Positions 4,043 to 24,246 of a stretch of DNA of 24,404 nt are shown piece by piece. This DNA is from a virus. The notes beneath the pieces were generated by a model. The model did not search any database and was not told the DNA's origin. It saw only the letters and a list, made by a program, of their open reading frames with translations. The position numbers and the translations under genes were made by a program. How positions within the stretch are numbered: the stretch's first letter is position 1; each line of letters opens with the position of its first letter. The stretch lies in the UHGV virus genome UHGV-0166778; one strand, given 5' to 3'.

Positions 4043-4487
4043 GTTTCACCGTCCACATTTCTTCAGGTTCATCGGGTTCCGCTACAGTTTCAACACTCGA
4101 CACACTGCCATCAGTGCTGACCAGCACACGCTCCGTCAGTTGCAGGTTAAGGCTGATATCACAGACATCATTGCGCAGAATATCCAGCTCAAAGGTGAAT
4201 AACTTTTCCCGTAACGCCGGGTTATTGATGGCATCAGGCTGATTATCCCGCAGCCACAGCAAAACCGGGGCCATCAGCAGATTCTGGTCGCCGCTGAAAT
4301 CCTCAATCACCACGTTCAGGGTATAGCGGTACTCCCATGACATGGAGCTGGCCCCCGTGGCAACCAGCGAACCGTTATCCACAAACAGATGCAGTTTGTC
4401 CGGGTTATTGCGGACATAAGGCACTGCTTTATTGAGGGCGTGGCGCAGGGATTGTGGTTTGTTCACTGTTTCGCTCCTGACACGCAA
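4035..4487 (-). CDS. R: Tail completion protein (P2 gpR-like)
   Basis: 150-aa ORF containing PQSLRHALNKAVPYVRNNPDKLHLFVDNGSL...YTLNVVIEDFSGD; the true start may be a downstream non-ATG codon. Confidence 0.8.
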   Translation of the reverse strand: MRVRSETVNKPQSLRHALNKAVPYVRNNPDKLHLFVDNGSLVATGASSMSWEYRYTLNVVIEDFSGDQNLLMAPVLLWLRDNQPDAINNPALREKLFTFELDILRNDVCDISLNLQLTERVLVSTDGSVSSVETVAEPDEPEEMWTVKRG

Positions 4488-4719
4488 TAATCATGTCCAC
4501 TTTGTCTGCACAGACCGCCCAGGCGACCTCCGTTTCATCCAGCAATGCGTTCAGATCACCGTTAGTGCGCGGCGCTGCCTGATCCAGCCGACACGGCGTC
4601 ACTCGCGGACACCCACTGACGGTAAGCTGCACCTCCGGTGAGTGCCGGACGTTCCCGCAGCCGGATAATGTCAGCAGGCAAAGGAGTATCAGCCCAGCGG
4701 CGTAAATCCTCGTTCTCAC
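4429..4719 (-). CDS. lysC: LysC / Rz1-like outer-membrane spanin lipoprotein, embedded out of frame across the lysB-R junction
   Basis: 96-aa ORF with a lipoprotein signal and lipobox (MRTRIYAAGLILLCLLTLSGCG); overlaps the 3' end of lysB and the 5' end of R as in P2. Confidence 0.6.
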   Translation of the reverse strand: MRTRIYAAGLILLCLLTLSGCGNVRHSPEVQLTVSGCPRVTPCRLDQAAPRTNGDLNALLDETEVAWAVCADKVDMIIACQERNSEQTTIPAPRPQ

Positions 4720-4990
4720 GTTTCAGTTCCTCAATCCGATGTTGTCGTTGTCTCAGCAGTGCACTGGTCTGTTCTGCTTCGGCGTAGAGCCGCGCCTGCT
4801 CCCGGTTGTTGGTTTCAGCCAGAATGGACAGACTGATCAGCTGGCTGTTTTTCTTCGTCAGTTCCTGCGCTTTACTTTTCAGCGCCGCGCGCTGCGTTTC
4901 GATGGTATGGCTGGCGCTGTTAAGCCGCCACGACTGCCAGCCCAGCGCAACGAGTGCCAGCGCCGCCACTACCGCCAGCGCACGTGTCAT
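4562..4990 (-). CDS. lysB: LysB / Rz-like inner-membrane spanin
   Basis: 142-aa ORF with an N-terminal TM segment (ALAVVAALALVALGW) and a charged coiled-coil region; immediately downstream of the endolysin with ATGA overlap. Confidence 0.7.
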   Translation of the reverse strand: MTRALAVVAALALVALGWQSWRLNSASHTIETQRAALKSKAQELTKKNSQLISLSILAETNNREQARLYAEAEQTSALLRQRQHRIEELKRENEDLRRWADTPLPADIIRLRERPALTGGAAYRQWVSASDAVSAGSGSAAH

Positions 4991-5502
4991 AGTCCAGCTC
5001 CTTTAAGGCACCAGGCCATCTCCCGCGCTCGGCGGTTATCCAGCCCCTGATTAAACACACCTTTTACATACACCCAGCGCGGCAACTGTCGGCACGCATC
5101 CGCCCAGCGCCGCTGATTGAGCAATTTCACCAGCGTGGAGCTGCAGGCATTGCCTGTCCCCACGTTGAAGGCAAATGACACCACCGCGTCATACACTTTC
5201 TGCGGTGGCTGTTGCTTCACACACCTTTCCAGTGACCGCTCCACACGCAGCACGTTGGAGATAAGCCCTTCTGCTGCCTGTCGTTCCGTAATGGTTTTGC
5301 CGGGAATGACGCCCGACGTATTACCAATGCCGTCAGTCCAGACACCCGCGCTGCACTGATACGGCTGCAGACGACAGCCTTCGTAATCGGCAATCAGTTT
5401 CAGTCCCTCCACGGAGGTGTGAAGCTGCTGAAAACCCGGCAGCGTGGCAGCAATAGCCAGCACGGCCCCGACAAGGCAGCGTTTAACGATTGATGGATTC
5501 AT
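4987..5502 (-). CDS. K: Endolysin (phage lysozyme, P2 gpK-like)
   Basis: 171-aa ORF with N-terminal EGLKLIADYEGCRLQPYQC...VWTDGIGNT, a lysozyme-type catalytic region; position after the holin. Confidence 0.85.
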   Translation of the reverse strand: MNPSIVKRCLVGAVLAIAATLPGFQQLHTSVEGLKLIADYEGCRLQPYQCSAGVWTDGIGNTSGVIPGKTITERQAAEGLISNVLRVERSLERCVKQQPPQKVYDAVVSFAFNVGTGNACSSTLVKLLNQRRWADACRQLPRWVYVKGVFNQGLDNRRAREMAWCLKGAGL

Positions 5503-5698
5503 AATCCTCCCGCGAGATCTGCCCGTCGCGCAGAAGCTGGTAGGCTTTGTGTTTGTAGTACCAGTTGATAGCCAGCATCAGTACACCAATCATCAGGCCG
5601 CCCAGCGTTGAGGCATCCTTGATGGACAAATCGCCCAGCCAGGCCAGCACAACGGCGATGCAGTACGTGATAAAGGCGCTGATTCGCTCAAGCGTCAT
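5483..5698 (-). CDS. Holin (small two-TM membrane protein)
   Basis: 71 aa with two hydrophobic helices (ISAFITYCIAVVLAWLGDL; LGGLMIGVLMLAINWYY) and a charged C-terminus, sitting between X and the endolysin. Confidence 0.7.
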   Translation of the reverse strand: MTLERISAFITYCIAVVLAWLGDLSIKDASTLGGLMIGVLMLAINWYYKHKAYQLLRDGQISREDYESINR

Positions 5699-5701
5699 AA
5701 T

Positions 5702-5905
5702 TCAGTCCCATAGCTGGACGGTCTGCACGGTGGTGGTGGTCGGAATGTCCGGCAGCTCCACCTGCAGCCCGTGAGGTAAAAAGGGGCCGTATTCGGCAAG
5801 CCCCGGATTTGCCTTCAGTACCTGCTCCGTGACACCCTGCGTGCGCCCGTAATGACGCCAGCAAAGCGCGTCCACCGTGTCATACTGATGCGCACGCACT
5901 TTCAT
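5702..5905 (-). CDS. X: Tail protein (P2 gpX-like)
   Basis: 67-aa ORF (MKVRAHQYDTVDALCWRHYGRTQGV...) of the same length and position as gpX. Confidence 0.8.
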   Translation of the reverse strand: MKVRAHQYDTVDALCWRHYGRTQGVTEQVLKANPGLAEYGPFLPHGLQVELPDIPTTTTVQTVQLWD

Positions 5906-6432
5906 CAGATAAGCTCCACTGTGCAGTGCGGCGCATCCTGCACCCGGCTGATGGCCCAGCGGGCGTCACGCCACAAATCACCGCTTGCTTCCGCCAGTTC
6001 CTCGCCCCGCTTCACACCGGATGCCGTGGCGTCATAGTCCTGATAACGCTCGTTGAGCATGGCGCGTGCCCAGCAGTAAACCGCGTTGAAATAGTGATGA
6101 ATGCGCTCACTTTTGCCGTCCAGCTGTTCCGCCGGAACCTCTGCCAGCGAGGCATATCCCAGCATCTGCTGACGTCTGCGAAACTCATACAGCTCTGCGT
6201 TGACCTCCGAAATTGCCGACAGCGCAACCTGCTTTAAACGCGGCTGCGTCACCGTGCCGTCAGTGCGCATGACACAGCGAAACTCCGACAGGTCCACATC
6301 AGGCCAGAACGGCGTATTTCTGATGATTTCCGCCTGTTCCGGTGCCTGTTCTGGCGCAACAAACTTCATGCTGCTTTCTCCTGAAATAAAGGGCGGTGGA
6401 CGGGATTTTGATGTGGCAGTGCCTTTCGCCAC
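5905..6432 (-). CDS. L: Head completion / stabilisation protein (P2 gpL-like)
   Basis: 175-aa ORF; real start may be the internal MKFVAPEQ. Position between M and X. Confidence 0.8.
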   Translation of the reverse strand: MAKGTATSKSRPPPFISGESSMKFVAPEQAPEQAEIIRNTPFWPDVDLSEFRCVMRTDGTVTQPRLKQVALSAISEVNAELYEFRRRQQMLGYASLAEVPAEQLDGKSERIHHYFNAVYCWARAMLNERYQDYDATASGVKRGEELAEASGDLWRDARWAISRVQDAPHCTVELI

Positions 6433-6464
6433 CCCGTGCCGCCCGTGCGCGGGGGCACGTTCTG

Positions 6465-7115
6465 TCAGCGGCTGTCATTGCGCAGTCTGCGCTCCAGCTG
6501 CTGTTTGTCTTTTTTCACGCCACAGCGGGGATCGAGCTGTAACGCATGGTTGAGATGATTAAGGGCGGAAGCCGGATTGCTTTCACTCAGGACAGCGCCA
6601 ATCGCTTTATGCAGACGTGCCCGTGACTGGTCCGGCATATCCAGACCGTCTGTCAGCTCCAGCGTCTGCAGCAACAGATCAGCATCAAAGCCGGTGGCGG
6701 CAAGCATTGCGCTCTGCGCTGCGTCTGCCATTTCCTCTGCCAGCACGGTCTGCACGTTGCGGTTACCCAACGGCATCACCCAGCCATGACGCAGGGCGTG
6801 ACGCCCGATCTCCAGCGCCCCGGCATAATCTCCGGCATCAATGCGCCACAGCATCACGTACATCAGCACGTCATCCTGTTGCGCGCCTCCGCCAGCCAGG
6901 ACACCCTCTGCCCAGGCGGCGTATTTCGGCAGCAGTTCCACCTTGATTTCCGCTTTTTTGACCGTGGACTGAACGCCCTTGAGACGGCGGCGGTCTTCCG
7001 CCAGTTGCAGCAGCATCAGGTCATAGCCCGACGCGTGGCGAACACTGCCACCCTCGCGAGCGGCCTGTTCAGCCTGAACGCGCAGGCGATGCTGCCGTGC
7101 GGGACTCAGGCTCAT
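6465..7115 (-). CDS. M: Terminase endonuclease (small) subunit (P2 gpM-like)
   Basis: 216-aa ORF MSLSPARQHRLRVQAEQAAREGGSV..., immediately downstream of N. Confidence 0.85.
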   Translation of the reverse strand: MSLSPARQHRLRVQAEQAAREGGSVRHASGYDLMLLQLAEDRRRLKGVQSTVKKAEIKVELLPKYAAWAEGVLAGGGAQQDDVLMYVMLWRIDAGDYAGALEIGRHALRHGWVMPLGNRNVQTVLAEEMADAAQSAMLAATGFDADLLLQTLELTDGLDMPDQSRARLHKAIGAVLSESNPASALNHLNHALQLDPRCGVKKDKQQLERRLRNDSR

Positions 7116-7118
7116 GAA

Positions 7119-8177
7119 TTACACTCCGGTTTCTGCTGCGGCGGCGCTGAAGTCACCAATCTGGATGTTTTCCACCAGTGCGGCGCAGCGGTAGTCCTCA
7201 ACCACATAGGCTTCGTTAACGGATTCAAAATTTTCAATCCGGTCACGTTTCGGGTTGTCGATAACTGAACGGCGGCGGGTATCTTCCTGCCAGTAGATGG
7301 ACAGGTTATCCAGACGGGTGATCAGCAGCGCATTCGGCGGGAAGAACGGCGCACGCACGGCCTGCAGGCCACCCATGCGTTTCTGACTGATGATCATATC
7401 GGCTGCCAGTTTTTCACTGTTTTCCTGCTCTTTGTTGACCAGCGGGAAATACTTGTCAGACAGCAGTTCACGACCGCAAATCACCACCAGATCGTCATCG
7501 TCCTGGTAGACCACGTCGATAAGCTCATTGACCGCATCCATCACCACAGCGTCCAGGTTGGCATATTCGCCACCTTTCCCGACTTTCACCGCACCCGGTG
7601 TGGTTTCGCCGCCCGTGGTGGTGCTGCCCATGACGTGATCCGGTGCATCCTCACGGATTTTCTGCAGCCAGCCTTTGTTCACATCCTGCAGCAGCGGGTT
7701 TTCACTACGGTTGGAGGTTTTCGCACGCTTCACGCCGTTAAAGCCGATCATGATGCGGTCCAGTGCCTGACGTTTCACGATGGCGTCACGGATACGCACC
7801 TGGAAATCCTGAAACTTCGCCCACAGGTCCAGCTTCGCGTAGGTCAGCACCGTGTCAAAGTTGGTCTGCTCGCATTTGTATTCCACATCGACCATCAGCG
7901 TCGGATCGACAGGTTCACGCTCTTTCGCGGTGGTGTCAGTGGTTCCGGCAATGGTGCTGCCAACACCCAGCCCCAGCAGCTGACCGGACTGCTCAGTCAC
8001 TGGCGTGACGTTAATCAGCGTCAGGAAAGCGGCGGACTGCTGGATCTGGTCTTCCAGCGTCTGCTGCACAGACGGCTCTACAGTGAACTTGCTGGACAGT
8101 TCTTCAACTGCCACACCGTTCAGACGTGCCAGTTGCTGCAGGTAAGCGTTAAAAGCAAAGCGGGTATTCTTCTTCAT
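7119..8177 (-). CDS. N: Major capsid protein (P2 gpN-like)
   Basis: 352-aa ORF MKKNTRFAFNAYLQQLARLNGV... matching gpN in length and N-terminus as recalled. Confidence 0.9.
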   Translation of the reverse strand: MKKNTRFAFNAYLQQLARLNGVAVEELSSKFTVEPSVQQTLEDQIQQSAAFLTLINVTPVTEQSGQLLGLGVGSTIAGTTDTTAKEREPVDPTLMVDVEYKCEQTNFDTVLTYAKLDLWAKFQDFQVRIRDAIVKRQALDRIMIGFNGVKRAKTSNRSENPLLQDVNKGWLQKIREDAPDHVMGSTTTGGETTPGAVKVGKGGEYANLDAVVMDAVNELIDVVYQDDDDLVVICGRELLSDKYFPLVNKEQENSEKLAADMIISQKRMGGLQAVRAPFFPPNALLITRLDNLSIYWQEDTRRRSVIDNPKRDRIENFESVNEAYVVEDYRCAALVENIQIGDFSAAAAETGV

Positions 8178-11970: not shown

Positions 11971-11998
11971 GGAGTCAGATATTCTGACTCCTTATTTC
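11971..11998. terminator. Bidirectional rho-independent terminator between convergent Q and the TM-TIR gene
   Basis: Stem ggagtcag / ctgactcc with a 5-nt loop, flanked by an A-run on one side and a T-rich tract on the other. Confidence 0.5.
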
Positions 11999-12599
11999 AA
12001 CCAAGAATGGACTTCAATGACAAATTGAGCTTATCAATTAATTTTTCATCCTCATAGTTTACAGACTTGATGTTTTTGAGCATCGCAGGCAATTCAGCAT
12101 CACCAATTATCACAGGAATTATAGGAACATAGTTTTCATCTTTTACCGTAGCTTTACGGAGAAAGCCCTCTACCTCCTTTCTTATATATGACTCCATATC
12201 TTCATTAGACAGAAGCAATATAGCCGCAGCGCTATTGTCTATAGCCTGATTAATTTGCTTTTCAATAATCTGCCCGGGCAATATGTTATTTTCATCAAAC
12301 CATACATCAAAACCTAACTCATTAAGCTTACAAGTTATTTGACGGGCCTTATCTTTTTCTTGTACGGGATACATTAGAAATATTTGCTTTCCTTTTTTAA
12401 CGGCCTTTAGTCTTCTTTCCCTTAATTTCATTAACACAATCAAACTCAGGCCAGAATAGGCAAAAGATAATCCAATAACGGAGATGATAATCTCATCATT
12501 AACTCCTTGAAATAAATATGGGAGCCGTGGAATAAGAGCCATAAGAAACCCAACAACAGCCAATGCAATTGAAATAATATAAAGAGTATTTTTTTTCAT
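11997..12599 (-). CDS. Membrane-anchored TIR-like domain protein (two N-terminal TM helices plus C-terminal TIR-like fold)
   Basis: 200 aa. N-terminal hydrophobic helices (LYIISIALAVVGFLMALIP; IIISVIGLSFAYSGLSLIVLM), then IFLMYPVQEKDKARQITCKLNELGFDVWFDENNILPGQ...AIDNSAAAILLLSNEDMESYIRKEVEGF, which follows the TIR beta-A / alpha-A / beta-C pattern. AT-rich, unlike the flanking phage core. Confidence 0.6.
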   Translation of the reverse strand: MKKNTLYIISIALAVVGFLMALIPRLPYLFQGVNDEIIISVIGLSFAYSGLSLIVLMKLRERRLKAVKKGKQIFLMYPVQEKDKARQITCKLNELGFDVWFDENNILPGQIIEKQINQAIDNSAAAILLLSNEDMESYIRKEVEGFLRKATVKDENYVPIIPVIIGDAELPAMLKNIKSVNYEDEKLIDKLNLSLKSILG

Positions 12600-13016
12600 T
12601 TACACACCCTTAATCCACAAAACAAAGGAAGCAAAAAATAATATGCCGACTAAATTACACCCAATACATAAAACCCAAATTTGACCTTTTGGATTTCCTG
12701 TTCGCCCTTCCCAATCTTGATGAAAAGACATGATCCCCAGTAATACAAAAAGAGAGAAGGCAAGAAAGCTAGTAGTTCCAATGTACTGATTAACCACTTG
12801 GTTAACCGTGGTTACTGTTTGAACAGTTTTAGTCAAATCATATAAATTCAACAATGATGCACCAATTGTCGATAATATCAACTCATTCCCAAAGTAAAAA
12901 TCACTCTTTTGCCAACCAGAGGATCTGGCAAGTTTTTTTACAAAAGCCCCACATAGAATCATCAACAATGGAAAAATTAAAGCAACAACGTATTTATTAC
13001 CAATGACATCAATCAT
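12600..13016 (-). CDS. Small polytopic membrane protein, function unknown; first gene of an operon with the TM-TIR gene
   Basis: 138 aa with about four hydrophobic helices; its stop codon directly abuts the ATG of the TM-TIR gene; AT-rich. Confidence 0.55.
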   Translation of the reverse strand: MIDVIGNKYVVALIFPLLMILCGAFVKKLARSSGWQKSDFYFGNELILSTIGASLLNLYDLTKTVQTVTTVNQVVNQYIGTTSFLAFSLFVLLGIMSFHQDWEGRTGNPKGQIWVLCIGCNLVGILFFASFVLWIKGV

Positions 13017-13342: not shown

Positions 13343-14185
13343 TCATGCACGATCATTTGACTCAGCATCTGCTGCACGCTTGCTGCGCGAAGATGCACTT
13401 TTACTACCAATCTTTCGACAGTTCTTTCTATCCCTGGCTTCATTTTCTTTAAATTTGTTATATGTCTCAGTATCAAAAAACGAAATTGTTTCAACCTCAT
13501 CTTTTGGTATGAGCACACGGAAATCTTCGATATTAAGCCGAGACATTCCACTTATCACACCACTATCAAGATAATGTTGGTGATAGTTAGTCGTGATACT
13601 AATCGTTAGATCATCTTTATCCCGATATCCGCTTAACATCGGGAGAAGTTCAAGGTGTTCTGAAAGCCCGTTTTCTAACGCCGGACAAGTAACAAGACCA
13701 ACATAGATTTTGCGAGACGACAGAGTTGCTATGATCGGAAACTGTCTTGCGGACGCTTCCATGAGTAATGATTCGAAAGCGTTATTACCCACAGCTTTAG
13801 CTAAGGCATCCCAGCGACGATCTCCACGTGATGTGCGTAACTTATTTCCAAAACCTGAAATCGCAGCGAGGACAATTGAAATCATAACCCATGCTATCTG
13901 TTTGATTTCATTTATTCTTTGAAGTTTGTCTTTCGATGAAGACAACATGCCGTTAAAACTGTCAGGTGTTAGATTCAAGGCATTAGCCAGCCAACGAAAC
14001 CCTCCGCTGACGTTCAAAATAAAGGTGAAAAAACCGCCAAGGAGAAAAAAAACGATACCCCAGGCAGCCACAAAAAAATAAGCGTCCCAGCCGTTGGAAC
14101 GCTTATATCGGTATCTTGTTGAAAGTGATAGGTTTACATAAATAAAACCACTAACCAAAATCACTGCTAAAAGTAATGTTGCCAT
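13343..14185 (-). CDS. Membrane-anchored protein of unknown function (N-terminal TM helices plus about 170-aa soluble domain)
   Basis: 280 aa with hydrophobic segments (LLLAVILVSGFIYV; YFFVAAWGIVFFLLGGFFTFIL; IAWVMISIVLAAISGF) and a charged Ser/Arg/Lys-rich C-terminus; AT-rich; start overlaps the stop of the upstream small gene (TAATG). Confidence 0.5.
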   Translation of the reverse strand: MATLLLAVILVSGFIYVNLSLSTRYRYKRSNGWDAYFFVAAWGIVFFLLGGFFTFILNVSGGFRWLANALNLTPDSFNGMLSSSKDKLQRINEIKQIAWVMISIVLAAISGFGNKLRTSRGDRRWDALAKAVGNNAFESLLMEASARQFPIIATLSSRKIYVGLVTCPALENGLSEHLELLPMLSGYRDKDDLTISITTNYHQHYLDSGVISGMSRLNIEDFRVLIPKDEVETISFFDTETYNKFKENEARDRKNCRKIGSKSASSRSKRAADAESNDRA

Positions 14186-14670: not shown

Positions 14671-14904
14671 TTAATGCAGCCAGCTGTCGTCTTCCCACAC
14701 CTTCTGCATAATTTTCATTACTTGTTTCCTTTCTTCGTCCAGTTGCAGTCCGGTCAGTTCCACACCGTTAGAGCTACCTTTACGGATACGAATTACCGTT
14801 TTGGGATACAGGGGGCGCAGATTGCGGTAAAGCTCGGATTCAAAGGCGTCCAGGGTAGACTGGCTAATCTTCTGCTCTTTATCGATCATTATTTCAATGC
14901 GCAT
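14671..14904 (-). CDS. dinI: DinI-family protein
   Basis: Internal start MRIEIMIDKEQKISQSTLDAFESELYRNLRPLYPKTVIRIRKGSSNGVELTGL...VWEDDSWLH fits the DinI length and pattern (MRIE... N-terminus, acidic W-containing C-terminus); GAGGTG ribosome-binding site upstream. Confidence 0.75.
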   Translation of the reverse strand: MRIEIMIDKEQKISQSTLDAFESELYRNLRPLYPKTVIRIRKGSSNGVELTGLQLDEERKQVMKIMQKVWEDDSWLH

Positions 14905-14914
14905 AAAAGTCACC

Positions 14915-15103
14915 TCAACTGATGACATCCATTGAGCGGTTGTATTCGTGGGTTCTGATTTTTGCCATAAGTTCATCTGTCAGTTCAGAAACCCACTGCA
15001 AAGCCAGCCCCTTCTCTTCATCACTACACTCACTAGCCGCTACAAGCTTAAGAAAAAAATCAATGCGCTGGAGCTTCAAAGACTCCAAAAAATAGTCCTG
15101 CAT
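14915..15103 (-). CDS. Putative Tum-like antirepressor (small protein transcribed from the LexA-controlled promoter)
   Basis: 62-aa ORF with a GGAGGA ribosome-binding site, directly downstream of a LexA-box promoter and upstream of dinI; the position matches tum of phage 186. Confidence 0.4.
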   Translation of the reverse strand: MQDYFLESLKLQRIDFFLKLVAASECSDEEKGLALQWVSELTDELMAKIRTHEYNRSMDVIS

Positions 15104-17670: not shown

Positions 17671-18524
17671 GCACGTACTCCGTACACGGCAGAACTATCC
17701 ACGCCACGCGAATAATCAAATCCCACCCAGCAGCGCGGCCCGGAAACAGCAATGATTTCTGTTGCTGATTTACCCTCGCCAGCTGCCACACCGATGCTGC
17801 GTTTTGCCTTGATGTAGTGGTGAGTAAAATTGCGATACAGCGAACGGATCAGGGATGTGTCACTGTTAGAAACAATGACCGGATGTCCTTCTGATGACCG
17901 ATGTTCAAGAACAGATGCCAGGTGATACTGGTCATCTTCAGTGAAGCCGTCAGTGTGATAGCCGGAAAACGTACCGTCATACGGCGGATCGCAATACACC
18001 ACATCCCCCGCCTTCAACATCGCCAGCGTTTCATCAAAGCTGGCGCAGATAAACGTTGCTCGCTGGGCCTTTTCTGCAAATGCGCGAATTTCTTTTTCAG
18101 GGAAATACGGATTTTTATAATTACCGTAGGGAATGTTGAAATGCCCGCTCTTGTTATAGCGACATAAACCACGGTAACCGTGACGATTGAGATACAGGAA
18201 ATATACCGCTTTCATGAAATCAGTAATTTCAGTTGAGTAATTAAACTCCTGCCTTATGTTGTAATAAGCCACCTCCCTGTTTGCGATCTCAAATAAAACT
18301 CTGGCGCGAGATATAAACGATTCACAATCAGCGGCAACCTTTTTATAGAGGTTGATTAAATCAGGATTAATATCCGCAACCAGATAGCTGGGATAATCCG
18401 TCTCCATCATCACAGCACAGGAACCCGCGAAAGGTTCAACCAGTCGCGGGCCAGCAGGAAGATGTTTTTTCAGTTCGGACATTATGGCTGTTTTATTTCC
18501 CGCCCATTTCAGGATGGTGCTCAT
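17667..18524 (-). CDS. dam: DNA adenine (N6) methyltransferase, Dam / D12 class
   Basis: Contains [12 protein letters not shown] (AdoMet motif) and DPPY (catalytic motif). Start taken at MSTILKW, overlapping the upstream stop, rather than at the longer ORF start at 18584. Confidence 0.85.
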
Positions 18525-18748
18525 ACAGCACCTCCGTTGTAATGTTTGCCTTTCAGCTCTGCGATTTCCTGACAGGTAATGCAAAGCTGCACACCCGGAA
18601 TGGCACGGCGGCGTGCTGGCGGAATTGGCGCTTCACACTCAATGCAAAGCACGCGGGACACGCCCGGCGTTTTGGCACGGGCAGCACGGATATGGCGTTG
18701 GCGTTCTTCTTCAACGCGCTGCTGTACGAGATCCATTGCATCAGCCAT
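18521..18748 (-). CDS. TraR/DksA-family C4 zinc-finger protein
   Basis: 75 aa with CIEC-x17-CITC in the C-terminal half. Confidence 0.7.
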   Translation of the reverse strand: MADAMDLVQQRVEEERQRHIRAARAKTPGVSRVLCIECEAPIPPARRRAIPGVQLCITCQEIAELKGKHYNGGAV

Positions 18749-18987
18749 TAGTGGATCTCCTGCGCTTCGTTCTGGATTGCTTCAGCAGTCACACGAAGCA
18801 GTTCTGCCGCTTCGACGTGGGTTAGCTGGCGGGATGTGATATGACACGCCAGGCTATCAAGGCGAGCTGCCATTGCTTCAGCCCTTGCCCGGCGTTCTTC
18901 CAGACGAGCCTCTGTCAGTAAAATATTAAGCCCTGCGTCATCCGGTCCGGTTTTGGTCGAGAGGGTTTCAATATTACGCATAATCAA
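18748..18987 (-). CDS. Hypothetical small early-operon protein
   Basis: 79-aa ORF, translationally coupled (overlapping stop/start) with the zinc-finger gene. Confidence 0.5.
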   Translation of the reverse strand: MIMRNIETLSTKTGPDDAGLNILLTEARLEERRARAEAMAARLDSLACHITSRQLTHVEAAELLRVTAEAIQNEAQEIH

Positions 18988-19048
18988 TTCTCCTGAATTT
19001 AGATAAAGGGATGCCCGGCGGGTTTACGCCATTAATTTCATTAGTTGG

Positions 19049-19390
19049 TTAATTCGGCATGGTTAGCCGTCTGGGAAATAAGCTCACCACTGCACGAAAA
19101 TGATTCATTGCTTTAATCAACTCCCGCTTTTCGTCAGTGGTCAGCTCATTAATGCTGATGCTATGACGTTCAGCTGGAATTTTTGCCATAAAGAATATGG
19201 CAGCCAGTGCCCGTTTATTTTGTTCGCTATTAATATCCCGTGAATCACGCATATCTTTAATAAACCGCTCAAGCTCTGACTCAATATTCAGGCCAAAAAC
19301 TTTCGCCCTTAACTCCGCAATGTGATTAAGTCCATTCAGGCGTTCACCGGGGCTTAATGGAACAGTCGCCGCAGTGCCTTCAATAGCCAT
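19049..19390 (-). CDS. Hypothetical protein (early region, AT-rich)
   Basis: 113-aa ORF; no family recognised. Confidence 0.5.
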   Translation of the reverse strand: MAIEGTAATVPLSPGERLNGLNHIAELRAKVFGLNIESELERFIKDMRDSRDINSEQNKRALAAIFFMAKIPAERHSISINELTTDEKRELIKAMNHFRAVVSLFPRRLTMPN

Positions 19391-19616
19391 TTATGCATCC
19401 CACAACACATCTACTAAAAAATTTTTGATATGATCCATTACCAACATATTGATAGCTAGAAGGAATCATCAATGTTGAACCCGGTTGAAAGAGAGCGTAT
19501 AGAGCAACTTGAAAACGAGATCTCCAGTCTTCGCGATGAGGTTGCTGTTCAACGAATTCTTGTTTCAGGTCTGATCCACTCCTTATTTCGAACTGACTCA
19601 GCAAATCAATCAGCAT
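19380..19616 (-). CDS. Hypothetical protein; antisense-overlapped by the ORF at 19472..19720
   Basis: 78-aa ORF with a GGAGGAG ribosome-binding site 7 nt upstream; its stop overlaps the start of the 19049..19390 gene, continuing the minus-strand early operon. Confidence 0.35.
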   Translation of the reverse strand: MLIDLLSQFEIRSGSDLKQEFVEQQPHREDWRSRFQVALYALFQPGSTLMIPSSYQYVGNGSYQKFFSRCVVGCINGY

Positions 19617-19720
19617 TTTTTGAGCTCCTCCGCGAAGAATTAAACAAACTTCCTTTAGGTTCGGTTAAACAACAAGAATTCACTCATCTGATACAGACAC
19701 TGATAGATCGTTACCGATAA
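19472..19720 (+). CDS. Hypothetical coiled-coil protein on the opposite strand of the early operon
   Basis: 82-aa ORF with an AAGGAA ribosome-binding site; ERERIEQLENEISSLRDEVAVQRIL is a heptad-like coiled coil. Overlaps the minus-strand ORF 19380..19616; which of the two is real cannot be decided from sequence alone. Confidence 0.35.
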   Translation: MLNPVERERIEQLENEISSLRDEVAVQRILVSGLIHSLFRTDSANQSAFFELLREELNKLPLGSVKQQEFTHLIQTLIDRYR

Positions 19721-19935
19721 ATATTTCGCCGATAACGTTCAAGAGGTGATGTCTTTATACGCATCACTTCTTGTACTTTTTCACCACGTATAAAGGTTCC
19801 ATCCTTTAGCGTGAAAAAGTAGCTACCATCGCCCGACAACGACGGATAGCAACAGAGCAAATCATCTTCAGGTACTGAATAATTCTCCCCTCTGTAACGA
19901 AAGTGATAAACCACTTTATTTTCTGCCGCATACAT
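19711..19935 (-). CDS. Hypothetical small protein
   Basis: 74-aa ORF MYAAENKVVYHFRYRGENYSVPEDDLLCCYPSLSGDGSYFFTLKDG... preceded by GGAGAAAG. Confidence 0.5.
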   Translation of the reverse strand: MYAAENKVVYHFRYRGENYSVPEDDLLCCYPSLSGDGSYFFTLKDGTFIRGEKVQEVMRIKTSPLERYRRNIYR

Positions 19936-20096
19936 TTGGACTTTCTCCGTTTCCTCGTGGTCAATTCAGACAGCAATTCATCTTGTGAACGGCACGGATG
20001 CCAGCGTTTACCATCCTCACCCATGATCCAGCCGTGACCGTAGTGCATTGCCGGACTTTGTTTTACCAGGAGCGATGCAAATGATGGTTCTTTCAT
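19806..20096 (-). CDS. Hypothetical small protein just downstream of cII; 3' end uncertain
   Basis: Starts MKEPSFASLLVKQSPAMHYGHGWIMGEDGKRWHPCRSQDELLSELTT; the distal part overlaps the 19711..19935 gene in another frame and has a low-complexity look, suggesting a shorter real protein or a frameshift. Confidence 0.35.
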   Translation of the reverse strand: MKEPSFASLLVKQSPAMHYGHGWIMGEDGKRWHPCRSQDELLSELTTRKRRKSKCMRQKIKWFITFVTEGRIIQYLKMICSVAIRRCRAMVATFSR

Positions 20097-20109
20097 CAGC
20101 ATAAGCACC

Positions 20110-20619
20110 TCACAGCAAACCGAATGAAGCACCGAGGCCAGTCACGGTATCAACCGCACTCGCCATCGCAGGATTAGCCTGTAAACGGGCCTGCAATGAA
20201 ACAGCAGCCAGCGCCATCAGTCGTGTAACAGAGTTAATGCTGCTGATCGCATCACGACGGCCTGCACTGGTTTTTACATCGCCAGAAACCGCACCTGCCG
20301 CGACACGCCCGATCTCTGCGGTTGCACTCATGACGTAATGTGGCAGTTTCTCTTTTGCCACCTCATTAATCGGTACACATGGCAGGCAGTGAATCTGAGC
20401 CAGAAAACCATCTACCAGCGTTGAATCTTCAGTCAGATCGGTAAGCAACCAGATTTCTGGTGCAGTTAATAAATGAGGTTGAGCTGGGTTCAGCTTGTTC
20501 CGCAGAATCTGCACATTCATGCCTGCACGTTCTGCCAGTTGCACCAGGTTGTGGCGCAGTGCAAAAGCCCTACAGGCTTCATCGAAATGCGGATGTTTGG
20601 AAATCTTGTAATCAAACAT
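20110..20619 (-). CDS. cII: CII-like lysogeny establishment regulator (phage 186 CII family)
   Basis: 169-aa [76 protein letters not shown]..., following an Apl-like gene as in 186. Confidence 0.8.
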
Positions 20620-20651: not shown

Positions 20652-20894
20652 TTACTTACCAACAATGACGCGGAAGTTGGAATGACCGAGGGATTCACGG
20701 ACCTGATCGGTTTTGTACATCAGATAACGCAGGCTTACGCGGCCTTTGTTTTTTTCTTTCTTGACCATGTACTTAGCAAGTTGACCATGGTGAATTTTTT
20801 GGTAAACAGAGCCGCGGGAAATACCCTCCCACTCTGCGAACTCTGCAGGCGTAGCCATCTCTTTTGGTACACGAATTGAAATATCAGTACTCAT
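20652..20894 (-). CDS. apl: Apl/Cox-like excisionase and transcriptional regulator
   Basis: 80-aa helix-turn-helix-like protein (PAEFAEWEGISRGSVYQKIHHGQL) as the first gene of the lytic operon, divergent from cI. Confidence 0.7.
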   Translation of the reverse strand: MSTDISIRVPKEMATPAEFAEWEGISRGSVYQKIHHGQLAKYMVKKEKNKGRVSLRYLMYKTDQVRESLGHSNFRVIVGK

Positions 20895-22690: not shown

Positions 22691-23476
22691 ATGCTGTCTG
22701 AAATAGAAATCAATGATGAAATTCAGCGAGGCAACATTTTTGATCCATTAACGGTATTAAATGGAACATTTAAAGTTCAATCTGCAAGCATTGATCTCTC
22801 TGTAAAAACAATACATATACCAGACTGTCAAGACAATAAAAAAACACGTAACAACCATATCCTGATGCCAGGGGAAACTGTAATATTAGAGTTAAATGAA
22901 AAATTCCAACTTGCAAAAAATTTAGCTGGTGTAATATTCCCAAGAAACACACTATCAAAAAATGGAATTATCATGACGAATCCAGGGCATATTGACCCTG
23001 GATATAATGGCATAATTTCAATATATCTTGTAAATATGTCAAAAGAACCATTCTCATTGACACAAAATTCTGCAGTAGCCCGAATGTTATTATTTAAAAC
23101 AATAATACCGACTAAAGGTTACCAAGGAAAAATCGTAAATAAATTGGATGATGATCAACTTTCTAGAATGGGAAAGGATTTTGCAGGACTTGATAAACGA
23201 CTTCCGAAAGAAATCAATAAAATCATTGCGAAAAAAACTGGCTTTATAATTGCGATAGCAGCCTTAATGCTAACGTTGATAACCCTAGCAATTCCTTTCT
23301 TATTTCAAATAGTATCCAGTAATGTCAGTAGTACAAAAGATCTTGAATTAACAATAAAAGTTCAACAAAATGAAATAAATAGCCTAAAAAGCACCGTTGA
23401 ATTACTAAAAAATGCTAAATCAAACGAACCAAAGGTTGATGCTAAAGTAAGCACCCCAAAAGCTATACGGGAGTAA
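22691..23476 (+). CDS. dCTP deaminase (Dcd)/dUTPase-fold protein with a C-terminal TM helix and coiled-coil tail
   Basis: 261 aa. The N-terminal ~185 aa show Dcd-family landmarks (LNGTFKVQSASIDLSV; PGETVILELNEKFQL; GIIMTNPGHIDPGYNGIISIYLVN); followed by a TM segment (FIIAIAALMLTLITLAIPFLF) and a Lys/Glu-rich coiled coil. AT-rich; ThyX start codon 2 nt after its stop. Confidence 0.7.
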   Translation: MLSEIEINDEIQRGNIFDPLTVLNGTFKVQSASIDLSVKTIHIPDCQDNKKTRNNHILMPGETVILELNEKFQLAKNLAGVIFPRNTLSKNGIIMTNPGHIDPGYNGIISIYLVNMSKEPFSLTQNSAVARMLLFKTIIPTKGYQGKIVNKLDDDQLSRMGKDFAGLDKRLPKEINKIIAKKTGFIIAIAALMLTLITLAIPFLFQIVSSNVSSTKDLELTIKVQQNEINSLKSTVELLKNAKSNEPKVDAKVSTPKAIRE

Positions 23477-23478
23477 AA

Positions 23479-24246
23479 ATGATAAAAATCTCTGATTTAT
23501 CAGTAAAATGCATATCACACCCTTCATTTGAAAGTAATGTTTTTGATGATTTTTTAAACACATCATCATTGCAATGGGTTCGCAAAGGGCAGGCGACCGA
23601 AGCTGAGCTTCTGGTAGAGGCCGCTGGCAGGCTATGTTATATGTCTTTTGGAGAGGATAAGCAGTCTCCACGGACTACAAGTCAATATATCAACAATTTA
23701 ATTATTCAAGGGCATGAAAGTGTCTTAGAACATTTGAACTGGACCTTTTTAATTACTGGGGTATCTCGTGCATTTACACACCAGCTAGTTCGGCATAGAG
23801 CTGGTTTTTCATATAGCCAGTTATCCCAACAGTATCATGATGAATCCGATGCTGAATTCGTAGCCCCTATAGAAGTAAAAAATGACCCAGAATTGTTTAA
23901 GTCATGGTGCCAACATATTGAAAGTAGTCTGGATTTTTATAAGCAATCCTTGAAAAAAATCCGTGAAAACCAATCGTATGAGAACAAAAAAGAAAAAATG
24001 CGGGCCCTAAGAAGCGCTTCTCGCTCTATATTGCCTAATGCAACCGAGACAAAAATAATCGTCACAGCAAATGCTCGCGCAATTCGACACTTCTTCGAAA
24101 TGAGAGGAGCAATACAGGGTGACTATGAAATGAGAACAGTTTCAGAAAAACTTTACGATATTGTAACTCAAGATGCCCCTGCCTTGTTCCAAGATTTCGA
24201 AAAAGTCAATGGAGGAACGGCGCACGTTAAGATAATAAAACAATAA
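23479..24246 (+). CDS. thyX: Flavin-dependent thymidylate synthase (ThyX family)
   Basis: 255 aa with the ThyX signature region GHESVLEHLNWTFLITGVSRAFTHQLVRHRAGFSYSQLSQQY (RHR-x7-8-S motif) and C-terminal ETKIIVTANARAIRHFFEMR; strong GGGAG ribosome-binding site. Confidence 0.85.
   Translation: MIKISDLSVKCISHPSFESNVFDDFLNTSSLQWVRKGQATEAELLVEAAGRLCYMSFGEDKQSPRTTSQYINNLIIQGHESVLEHLNWTFLITGVSRAFTHQLVRHRAGFSYSQLSQQYHDESDAEFVAPIEVKNDPELFKSWCQHIESSLDFYKQSLKKIRENQSYENKKEKMRALRSASRSILPNATETKIIVTANARAIRHFFEMRGAIQGDYEMRTVSEKLYDIVTQDAPALFQDFEKVNGGTAHVKIIKQ

Follow-up and report, generated by a model that had tools for sequence, protein, structure and literature searches.

We have examined a stretch of 24,404 nucleotides (UHGV virus genome UHGV-0166778, hereafter the window) that corresponds to a P2/186-like (Peduoviridae) prophage of Escherichia coli, and within it two open reading frames (ORFs) that overlap on opposite strands of the early region: one of 82 amino acids at 19472..19720 on the plus strand (the plus ORF) and one of 78 amino acids at 19380..19616 on the minus strand (the minus ORF), both starting with ATG. 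As judged from its relatives, the plus ORF is clearly a genuine small gene, opposing the early operon in which it lies. For the minus ORF, the comparative statistics show that the Shine-Dalgarno (SD) sequence, the ATG and the open frame appear to be selected while the amino acid sequence drifts, a pattern that sets it apart both from an ordinary gene and from a simple shadow. Taken together, a real gene on the plus strand, a minus ORF kept as a translated frame and a mechanism by which ribosomes bridge the backward gene make up the interpretation towards which, on comparative grounds, we lean slightly.

The early lytic operon of this prophage is on the minus strand, in the order apl/cox, cII, fil', orf74, DUF5347, DUF2732, DksA-like, Dam and gpA, and the CI and integrase genes are on the plus strand from 21016 onward. 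The minus ORF is antisense to codons 1-48 of the plus ORF and also to its promoter and 5' untranslated region (UTR). A first-pass annotation, made from the letters alone, had described two ORFs of about 80 codons overlapping by about 145 bp, each with a ribosome-binding site, the minus one fitting into the early-operon chain and the plus one converging on the gene at 19711..19935 with a 10-bp overlap, and this geometry stands in every part. The overlap is exactly 145 bp (19472-19616) and takes in 48 of the 78 minus codons. The SD sequences are AAGGA at 19460..19464 (plus strand), at a distance of 7 nt from the plus ATG, and GGAGGAG on the minus strand, the complement of 19625..19631 (CTCCTCC on the plus strand), 8 nt before the minus ATG. 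The stop of the minus ORF lies 11 nt within the next cistron, the DUF5347 early gene (19049..19390, minus strand; Pfam PF17282, E = 1.8e-33, also annotated by the Prokaryotic Genome Annotation Pipeline, PGAP), and the 3' end of the plus ORF overlaps the convergent orf74 (19711..19935) by 10 bp. The "AT-rich island" of the same annotation is moderately AT-rich, with a GC content of 0.39-0.42 (0.39 over 19391-19711) against 0.47-0.54 a few hundred bases away on the cII side and 0.50-0.58 around 18350-19100. An identical stretch of 550 bp was found in E. coli chromosomes, and at least 80% of it is present in 65 of 5,426 complete genomes (ca. 1%). One strain with this prophage is E. coli WL297 (NZ_CP128613, prophage region ca. 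1,155,000-1,163,000).

The plus ORF is annotated by PGAP (WP_000934004.1, "hypothetical protein"), which does not call the minus ORF. It matches phrog_26925 over its whole length (E = 1.6e-57, residues 1-82 on profile positions 1-82 of 82), and its homologs with 65-71% identity, from Lelliottia, Klebsiella and metagenomic prophages, are all exactly 82 amino acids long and unchanged in position and orientation. Remote homologs, down to 28% identity, remain within 79-86 amino acids throughout. When 1.8 billion representative proteins were searched with a profile, only 15 matched, 13 of them of 79-86 amino acids, the remaining two being a 33-amino acid fragment and a weak partial match in a protein of 2,059 amino acids. 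Homologs come from prophages of E. coli, Klebsiella, Lelliottia, Pseudescherichia, Pantoea and Pectobacterium, with slot and strand conserved, and all the loci that we fetched (down to ca. 37% identity) were P2-like early regions in which the gene is reversed with respect to the operon; among these loci the family was seen solely in P2/186-like prophages of Enterobacterales. A search of genome contigs with the family alignment yielded no confirmed locus, tblastn of the plus protein against the INPHARED phages gave no match, and a metagenome search with a narrower family alignment returned mostly lineages that were already in our set.

The pattern of substitutions is that of a coding sequence. 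Five star-like lineages (nucleotide identity 0.68-0.74) were compared: plus codon positions 1, 2 and 3 differ 123, 89 and 240 times where the minus ORF overlaps, and 67, 41 and 172 times in the rest of the gene, so that most changes fall at the third position, the signature expected of the plus frame. An AlphaFold2 model from a 22-sequence alignment describes a predicted small three-helix protein (residues 4-40, 44-57 and 65-81), with a predicted local distance difference test score (pLDDT) of 87, in agreement with the coiled-coil peptide guessed at from the sequence. Its function was not revealed by similarity: there were no matches in Pfam or PADLOC, nothing significant in a sequence profile search against the PDB (best E = 0.11) and nothing at E <= 0.001 with Foldseek against PDB and BFVD. 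The suggestion of an exclusion or toxin-like moron thus finds no backing, since neither product of the ORF pair resembles known toxins, antitoxins or defence proteins in PADLOC, Pfam, PDB or by fold. Rfam gave only chance-level matches on the locus.

The gene also seems to carry its own signals. Upstream of it there is a predicted extended -10 element (TGATATGAT, 19426..19434, plus strand) with the TGnTAnnnT motif, from which transcription would start near 19441; the motif is found 38-46 nt before the plus start in nine of ten near-clade lineages, and CATAAT occupies the -10 position in three of the four far-clade loci. A strict two-hexamer scan for sigma-70 promoters found no -35/-10 pair, and the promoter is for this reason proposed at the level of a consensus. 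At the SD position the relatives have GGGGA, GAGGA or AAGGA. No correctly spaced LexA box was found upstream of the plus ORF when the sequences of the relatives were read directly. We infer that the plus ORF would be expressed from the repressed prophage while the early operon is silent. Two direct TTGATA repeats 24 bp apart (19425-19430 and 19449-19454) lie in the plus promoter and 5' UTR; the second of them, in the form [AT]TGATAGC, turns up again in four near-clade lineages out of the nine besides the window (exact in L005, L009 and L037, and as TTGATTAC in L003), and might serve as an additional promoter element or as an operator.

A terminator-like hairpin followed by TACTTTTT (19740..19781, plus strand) begins 20 nt past the plus stop, within the reading frame of orf74, the convergent gene, and is the sole terminator-like site that the scan detected within 19200-20000. 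The hairpin proper extends over 19740-19773, with arms CAAGAGGTGATG and CATCACTTCTTG; by hand its stem has 12 Watson-Crick or G-U pairs (one of them G-U), and the scan tool counts 13. It is conserved in all the lineages examined except L033, where it is not evident, and the T tract behind it is weak in several relatives. It is also present in phage vB_EcoM-813R9, which has no plus ORF, and there the arms differ in sequence but pairing is preserved (GAGATAC/GTATCgTCTC). The two strands give mixed folding energies, which do not show whose RNA uses the hairpin.

The start codon of the minus ORF (19614..19616) reads CAT on the plus strand, where it is made of the last two bases of plus codon 48 and the first base of codon 49, and it is kept in 10 of 12 near-clade lineages despite changes of plus residue 48 between Ala, Thr and Ser (GCA, ACA, TCA); it is missing from L036, L068 and the entire far clade. 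An SD sequence (GGAG, GAGGA or AAGGA) stands 8-11 nt before the ATG in nine of the ten near lineages inspected; the far clade has none.

The openness of the frame was assessed by permuting synonymous codons within each plus gene and then counting antisense stops, a procedure that preserves the plus protein and its own codon usage (the TCN and AGY blocks of serine were held apart). Total counts were used, Fisher combination of the p-values of single lineages being unsuitable for such discrete outcomes. In the minus phase over plus codons 1-48, the first ten lineages had one antisense stop against 12.5 expected, and with further lineages added as a replication set, all 11 lineages other than the window had two against 14.9 (Poisson 4e-5). 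Subsets restricted to deeply diverged lineages still gave p ca. 0.001-0.002. The depletion was confined to this phase and this segment, as the 14 control comparisons had observed to expected ratios of 0.81-1.28. Over the same codons 1-48, the other two antisense phases had 17 stops against 14.1 expected and 28 against 33.6; codons 49-82 of the plus ORF, in the three antisense phases, had 20/20.5, 31/24.4 and 23/18.0; orf74 had 26/32.1, 60/56.7 and 27/26.5; DUF5347 had 58/60.3, 20/17.9 and 42/42.0; and cII had 65/72.9, 47/44.0 and 41/40.7. In the four far-clade lineages (37-46% identity) the minus phase contained 17 stops against 14.5 expected. Plus third positions differ by 0.39-0.70 among deep lineages (0.21 between L040 and L050), and with differences at 40-70% of these positions between most lineages, inheritance alone cannot have kept the frame open.

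The window by itself would not have sufficed to establish this. The probability of an open antisense frame over codons 1-48 is, given the plus protein, ca. 0.14-0.32, and that of an open frame across the 81-nt upstream spacer ca. 0.07, giving a joint probability for this phase of ca. 0.01-0.02. Such a value is unusual rather than decisive for a single sequence, and it is the relatives that decide.

The spacer between the plus start and DUF5347 tells a similar story. In the six lineages of group A (the window, L003, L005, L009, L028 and L037) it measures 76, 78, 79, 80, 81 and 82 nt, and every phase relative to DUF5347 is thus represented. Even so, the spacer is free of in-phase stops in all six, against four of 12 off-phase frames without a stop, and their minus ORFs stop -3 to +37 nt from the DUF5347 ATG. 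Across the codons shared with the plus gene the minus ORF is intact in group A, with no stops against 6.3 expected. Group C (L035, L040 and L050) has another gene order, cII-orf74-[plus ORF]-fil, and here too the minus ORF is intact (no stops against 5.3 expected) and its frame continues in frame into fil.

The peptide that this frame would encode appears to be free to change. In the overlap phase, plus position 3 faces minus position 2, and for this reason the second position of the minus codons is the most variable (240 differences, against 123 and 89), with ca. 50% of these sites differing between lineages. The synonymous rate of the plus gene does not drop in the overlap (0.50 differences per site, against 0.52 outside), which argues that the minus peptide itself is not selected. 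The minus peptides are barely alignable between lineages; they range from 73 to 87 amino acids, with a variable C-terminus and insertions or deletions of 1-2 nt, and their final stretch of ca. 30 residues derives from the DNA of the plus promoter and 5' UTR. No family match was found in Pfam, PHROGs or PADLOC, and the databases occasionally hold the product as "hypothetical protein" entries of 78 and 87 amino acids. Purifying selection on the amino acid sequence is thus seen for the plus product and fails for the minus one, and the inverted pattern of codon positions, the variable ends and the undiminished synonymous rate of the plus gene together rule out a conventional protein gene on the minus strand. 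The comparison of conservation and synonymous sites in both frames that the first-pass annotation had proposed as a check has given a mixed answer: codon constraint exists only in the plus frame, and the start, SD and open frame of the minus ORF have been kept nonetheless. Of the two possibilities that it had offered, a genuine pair or a shadow ORF, the plus ORF has turned out to be a real gene and the minus ORF fits neither exactly.

Judging from what groups A and C have in common, the simplest reading is that translation itself would be the function of the minus ORF. More specifically, it may be kept solely as a translatable frame, a "ribosome bridge" on which ribosomes would cross the convergent gene and its promoter and so protect the replication genes downstream; we regard the chances of this specific proposal as evenly balanced. 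When the early operon is transcribed, ribosomes would start at the minus ATG, traverse the antisense of the plus gene and of its promoter, and halt at -3 to +37 nt from where the next cistron begins; in group C they would instead continue in the same frame into fil. The stretch of untranslated mRNA between orf74 and DUF5347 would in this way be cut from ca. 320 nt to ca. 94 nt, and expression of the downstream replication genes might be protected against polarity of the Rho type. P2-type operons are known to be prone to Rho polarity, the property by which the "polarity suppression" protein Psu of P4 was defined (PMC11718236). Alternatively, the benefit could be that stalling of the RNA polymerase by head-on traffic from the plus promoter is averted, or that antisense pairing with the plus mRNA is. 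Ribosome-assisted passage through head-on traffic and protection from pairing seem to us equally plausible with relief of Rho polarity.

Several observations weigh against this interpretation. The two ORFs are not conserved together across the family, the minus ORF being missing or broken in part of the lineages. In the far clade it is missing, with 3-5 stops in each lineage, and an untranslated gap of ca. 270-290 nt is tolerated there. Group B (L036, L038 and L068) has the gene order of group A and a broken minus ORF: L036 has no minus ATG and a stop in the spacer, L068 has no minus ATG and one stop, and in L038, where ATG and SD are kept, two adjacent isoleucines (Ile-Ile) of the plus protein make the stop unavoidable. 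A frame that is broken in group B while kept in A and C would be useful but dispensable, and the joint loss of ATG and frame in L036 and L068, where the SD is weak, is what would be expected of the decay of a formerly functional unit. The minus-strand RNA over 19391-19711 contains more G than C (70 against 54), which makes it a poor classical Rho utilization (rut) site and counts against the version of the mechanism based on Rho. Coupling would not be strictly required, since DUF5347 possesses an SD-like GGGA of its own, and a gap of 94 nt between the orf74 stop and the minus ATG persists untranslated in any case. Finally, the smallest p-values for the depletion of stops are optimistic, because the lineages are not fully independent.

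The last point bears directly on the possibility that the minus ORF is a chance shadow, an accidental open frame of the ancestor that has not yet decayed. The unconstrained peptide, the absence in the far clade and the breakage in group B, and the lack of a PGAP annotation are all what a shadow would give. Shadow ORFs of at least 100 amino acids are, besides, numerous elsewhere in the window, and the probability of an open frame in a single lineage is 0.03-0.6, which is not tiny; the lineages are also few and partly related. We nevertheless consider a shadow unlikely: stops are depleted in one phase and one segment only, with all 14 controls near 1, and with 40-70% of the plus third positions differing even the conservative subsets remain at p ca. 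0.001. An accidental frame would not be expected to survive the insertions and deletions of the spacer, or to keep its ATG across amino acid replacements in the plus protein and in company with an SD, or to lose ATG, SD and frame together as in L036 and L068.

If a product were selected after all, the two ORFs would be a true antisense pair in which the minus ORF encodes a functional peptide, fast-evolving or newly overprinted, for example a host-takeover or exclusion factor. The conserved SD, ATG and open frame would be accounted for, gene callers do sometimes predict the ORF (the 78- and 87-amino acid entries), and young overprinted genes are often poorly conserved. However, the most variable position of its codons is the second (240 against 123 and 89), whereas a coding sequence would show the reverse, and the synonymous rate of the plus gene is not lowered where a second peptide would constrain it. 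Length (73-87 amino acids) and C-terminus vary, the last 30 residues come from the promoter region of the plus gene, group C fuses the frame to fil, and no family matches it, all of which makes this idea rather improbable. We would give still less credit to a unit acting at the level of RNA or transcription, in which convergent transcription from the plus promoter interferes with the early transcripts of the phage itself or of incoming relatives, or supplies antisense RNA against them, as a form of immunity or exclusion. The constant convergence of the plus gene with the operon and the overlap of its 3' end with orf74 up to a conserved hairpin would suit such a role, and there is a precedent in the antisense RNA STnc6030 of prophage BTP1, for which exclusion is documented (PMC7067206). 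Against it, the plus protein is under clear purifying selection and invariant in length, so the protein must matter; conservation of the minus ATG, SD and frame is left unexplained; and no Rfam family matches. An RNA-level role and a translated bridge are not exclusive, and the two could coexist.

The history of the plus gene can be glimpsed in its presence and absence among relatives. In the collinear phage vB_EcoM-813R9 (L002), a 339-bp segment that comprises the plus promoter and the plus ORF (19391..19729) is replaced by 41 bp; in blastn, window positions 19000-19390 correspond to 1501-1891 of that phage (97%) and 19730-20200 to 1933-2403 (91%). The segment is also absent from the group of Klebsiella phage 4LV2017. 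The replacement in 813R9 indicates that promoter and gene behave as a cassette. Since the gene lies beside orf74 in close as well as distant relatives, its loss from 813R9 is no less likely than its acquisition in the window.

This recalls the morons and lysogenic-conversion cassettes of phages, such as old, tin and fun(Z) of P2 or the morons of HK97 and lambda. Like them, the plus ORF stands as one small gene between two operon genes; it is preceded by a candidate promoter and followed by a hairpin, is AT-richer than its neighbours (GC 0.39 in the segment against 0.50-0.57, a difference in base composition of the kind used to recognize morons) and is missing from the collinear 813R9. In contrast to morons, the family is not sporadic, as in the loci fetched it occupies one slot, always reversed and beside orf74, across genera and down to ca. 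37% identity, and it has no homology to known morons. The comparison of loci makes the gene look like an old resident of the early region that may have been lost from 813R9.

The minus ORF, for its part, resembles ORFs that matter for the act of translation, such as leader peptides, upstream ORFs and the coupled cistrons that counteract Rho polarity. It shares with them conserved start signals, a conserved frame with a free peptide, and a stop that adjoins or overlaps the beginning of the following cistron, in a phage operon whose genes are closely coupled. It differs in its length of 73-87 codons, in being antisense to a real gene and its promoter, and in apparently crossing a spacer rather than acting as a sensor. 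To our knowledge, no translation-only ORF maintained opposite a convergent gene has been described, and we found in the literature no description of the plus gene nor of an antisense ORF kept only as a frame opposite a convergent gene. With the embedded antisense overlapping genes claimed in E. coli by Neuhaus, Scherer, Ardern and colleagues (bioRxiv 10.1101/2020.11.18.388249), the minus ORF has in common that it is long, has an SD and stays open in relatives; it differs by the lack of constraint at the protein level and because only 48 of its 78 codons overlap a gene. The predicted plus transcript, on the other hand, resembles OOP of lambda and STnc6030 of BTP1 (PMC7067206) in being antisense to a lytic mRNA and ending at a hairpin within a lytic gene, and is unlike them in that it encodes a conserved protein.

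The closest companion of the plus gene is orf74 (phrog_4312; 19711..19935, minus strand), a small early-operon protein of 74 amino acids with the motif DGSYFFTLxDGTFFRGE / CCYPSLSGDGSYFFTLKDGTFFRGEQVKEV. Wherever intact, it converges with the plus ORF, from an overlap of 35 nt (L040) to a gap of 10 nt (L039) and mostly with 4-10 nt of overlap; in L034 it is reduced to a broken remnant of 41 codons ca. 70 nt away. Such constant convergence suggests a functional pair. A few database entries label shorter versions of orf74 as "regulator". We considered whether orf74 could be dhr of phage 186 and rejected this, as tblastn found it only in 15 Escherichia and Klebsiella records, none of them phage 186. 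The adjacent fil gene, a cell-division inhibitor (19806..20102, minus strand), has had its C-terminus replaced in the window: it matches Pfam PF10893 at positions 1-49 of 56, PGAP lists it as a pseudogene lacking the C-terminus, and only 19947-20102 is Fil-like, the rest extending out of frame over 130 nt of the well-conserved orf74. In groups C and D an intact fil follows the plus ORF, which indicates that the early region has been rearranged between lineages. Further upstream in the operon are the genes for CII (20110-20619, minus strand; PF06892) and an Apl/Cox-like protein (20652-20894, minus strand); downstream of DUF5347 come those for DUF2732, a DksA/TraR-like protein, the Dam methylase and the replication endonuclease gpA. 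Beyond the replication gene in the direction of the operon, at lower coordinates, a DinI-like protein is encoded (14671-14976, minus strand; PF06183, E = 3.7e-22).

Other parts of the window and of related loci carry further genes of note. The variable region next to the portal and terminase genes contains three minus-strand ORFs (11997-12599, 12600-13016 and 13343-14185). One encodes a protein with a TIR domain (PF13676, E = 3.6e-17; PADLOC gave weak ThsB/SAVED-TIR-like matches) and two are of unknown nature; together they are probably anti-phage defence cargo. Directly after the integrase gene, a dCTP-deaminase/dUTPase-like protein (22691-23476, plus strand) and the thymidylate synthase ThyX (23479-24246, plus strand) may form a nucleotide-metabolism or defence module at the edge of the prophage. 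Among the relatives, other cargo flanks this early region: the Pantoea locus L034 encodes a pair of reverse transcriptases along with an effector of the retron Ec48 type (1-1480 and 4478-6028), and the Klebsiella-type loci L005-L008 have a KAP NTPase between cI and int (6127-7578; 2611-4062 in L008).

The databases list the products of both ORFs only as "hypothetical protein", and the plus gene represents a widely conserved and unstudied family of small genes which, like its constant partner orf74, sits in the early region of P2/186-like prophages. Long and conserved antisense ORFs are usually read either as shadows or as hidden proteins, and this locus supports a third reading, in which what is kept is the act of translation. 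The locus would also offer a clean experimental handle, because synonymous changes of the plus gene can introduce stops into the minus frame. If the proposal is true, there would be a class of overlapping ORFs selected for being translated and not for their product, and conserved open antisense frames would have to be taken with caution as evidence for antisense proteins. For these prophages, it would show how a phage operon tolerates a gene inserted backwards within it.

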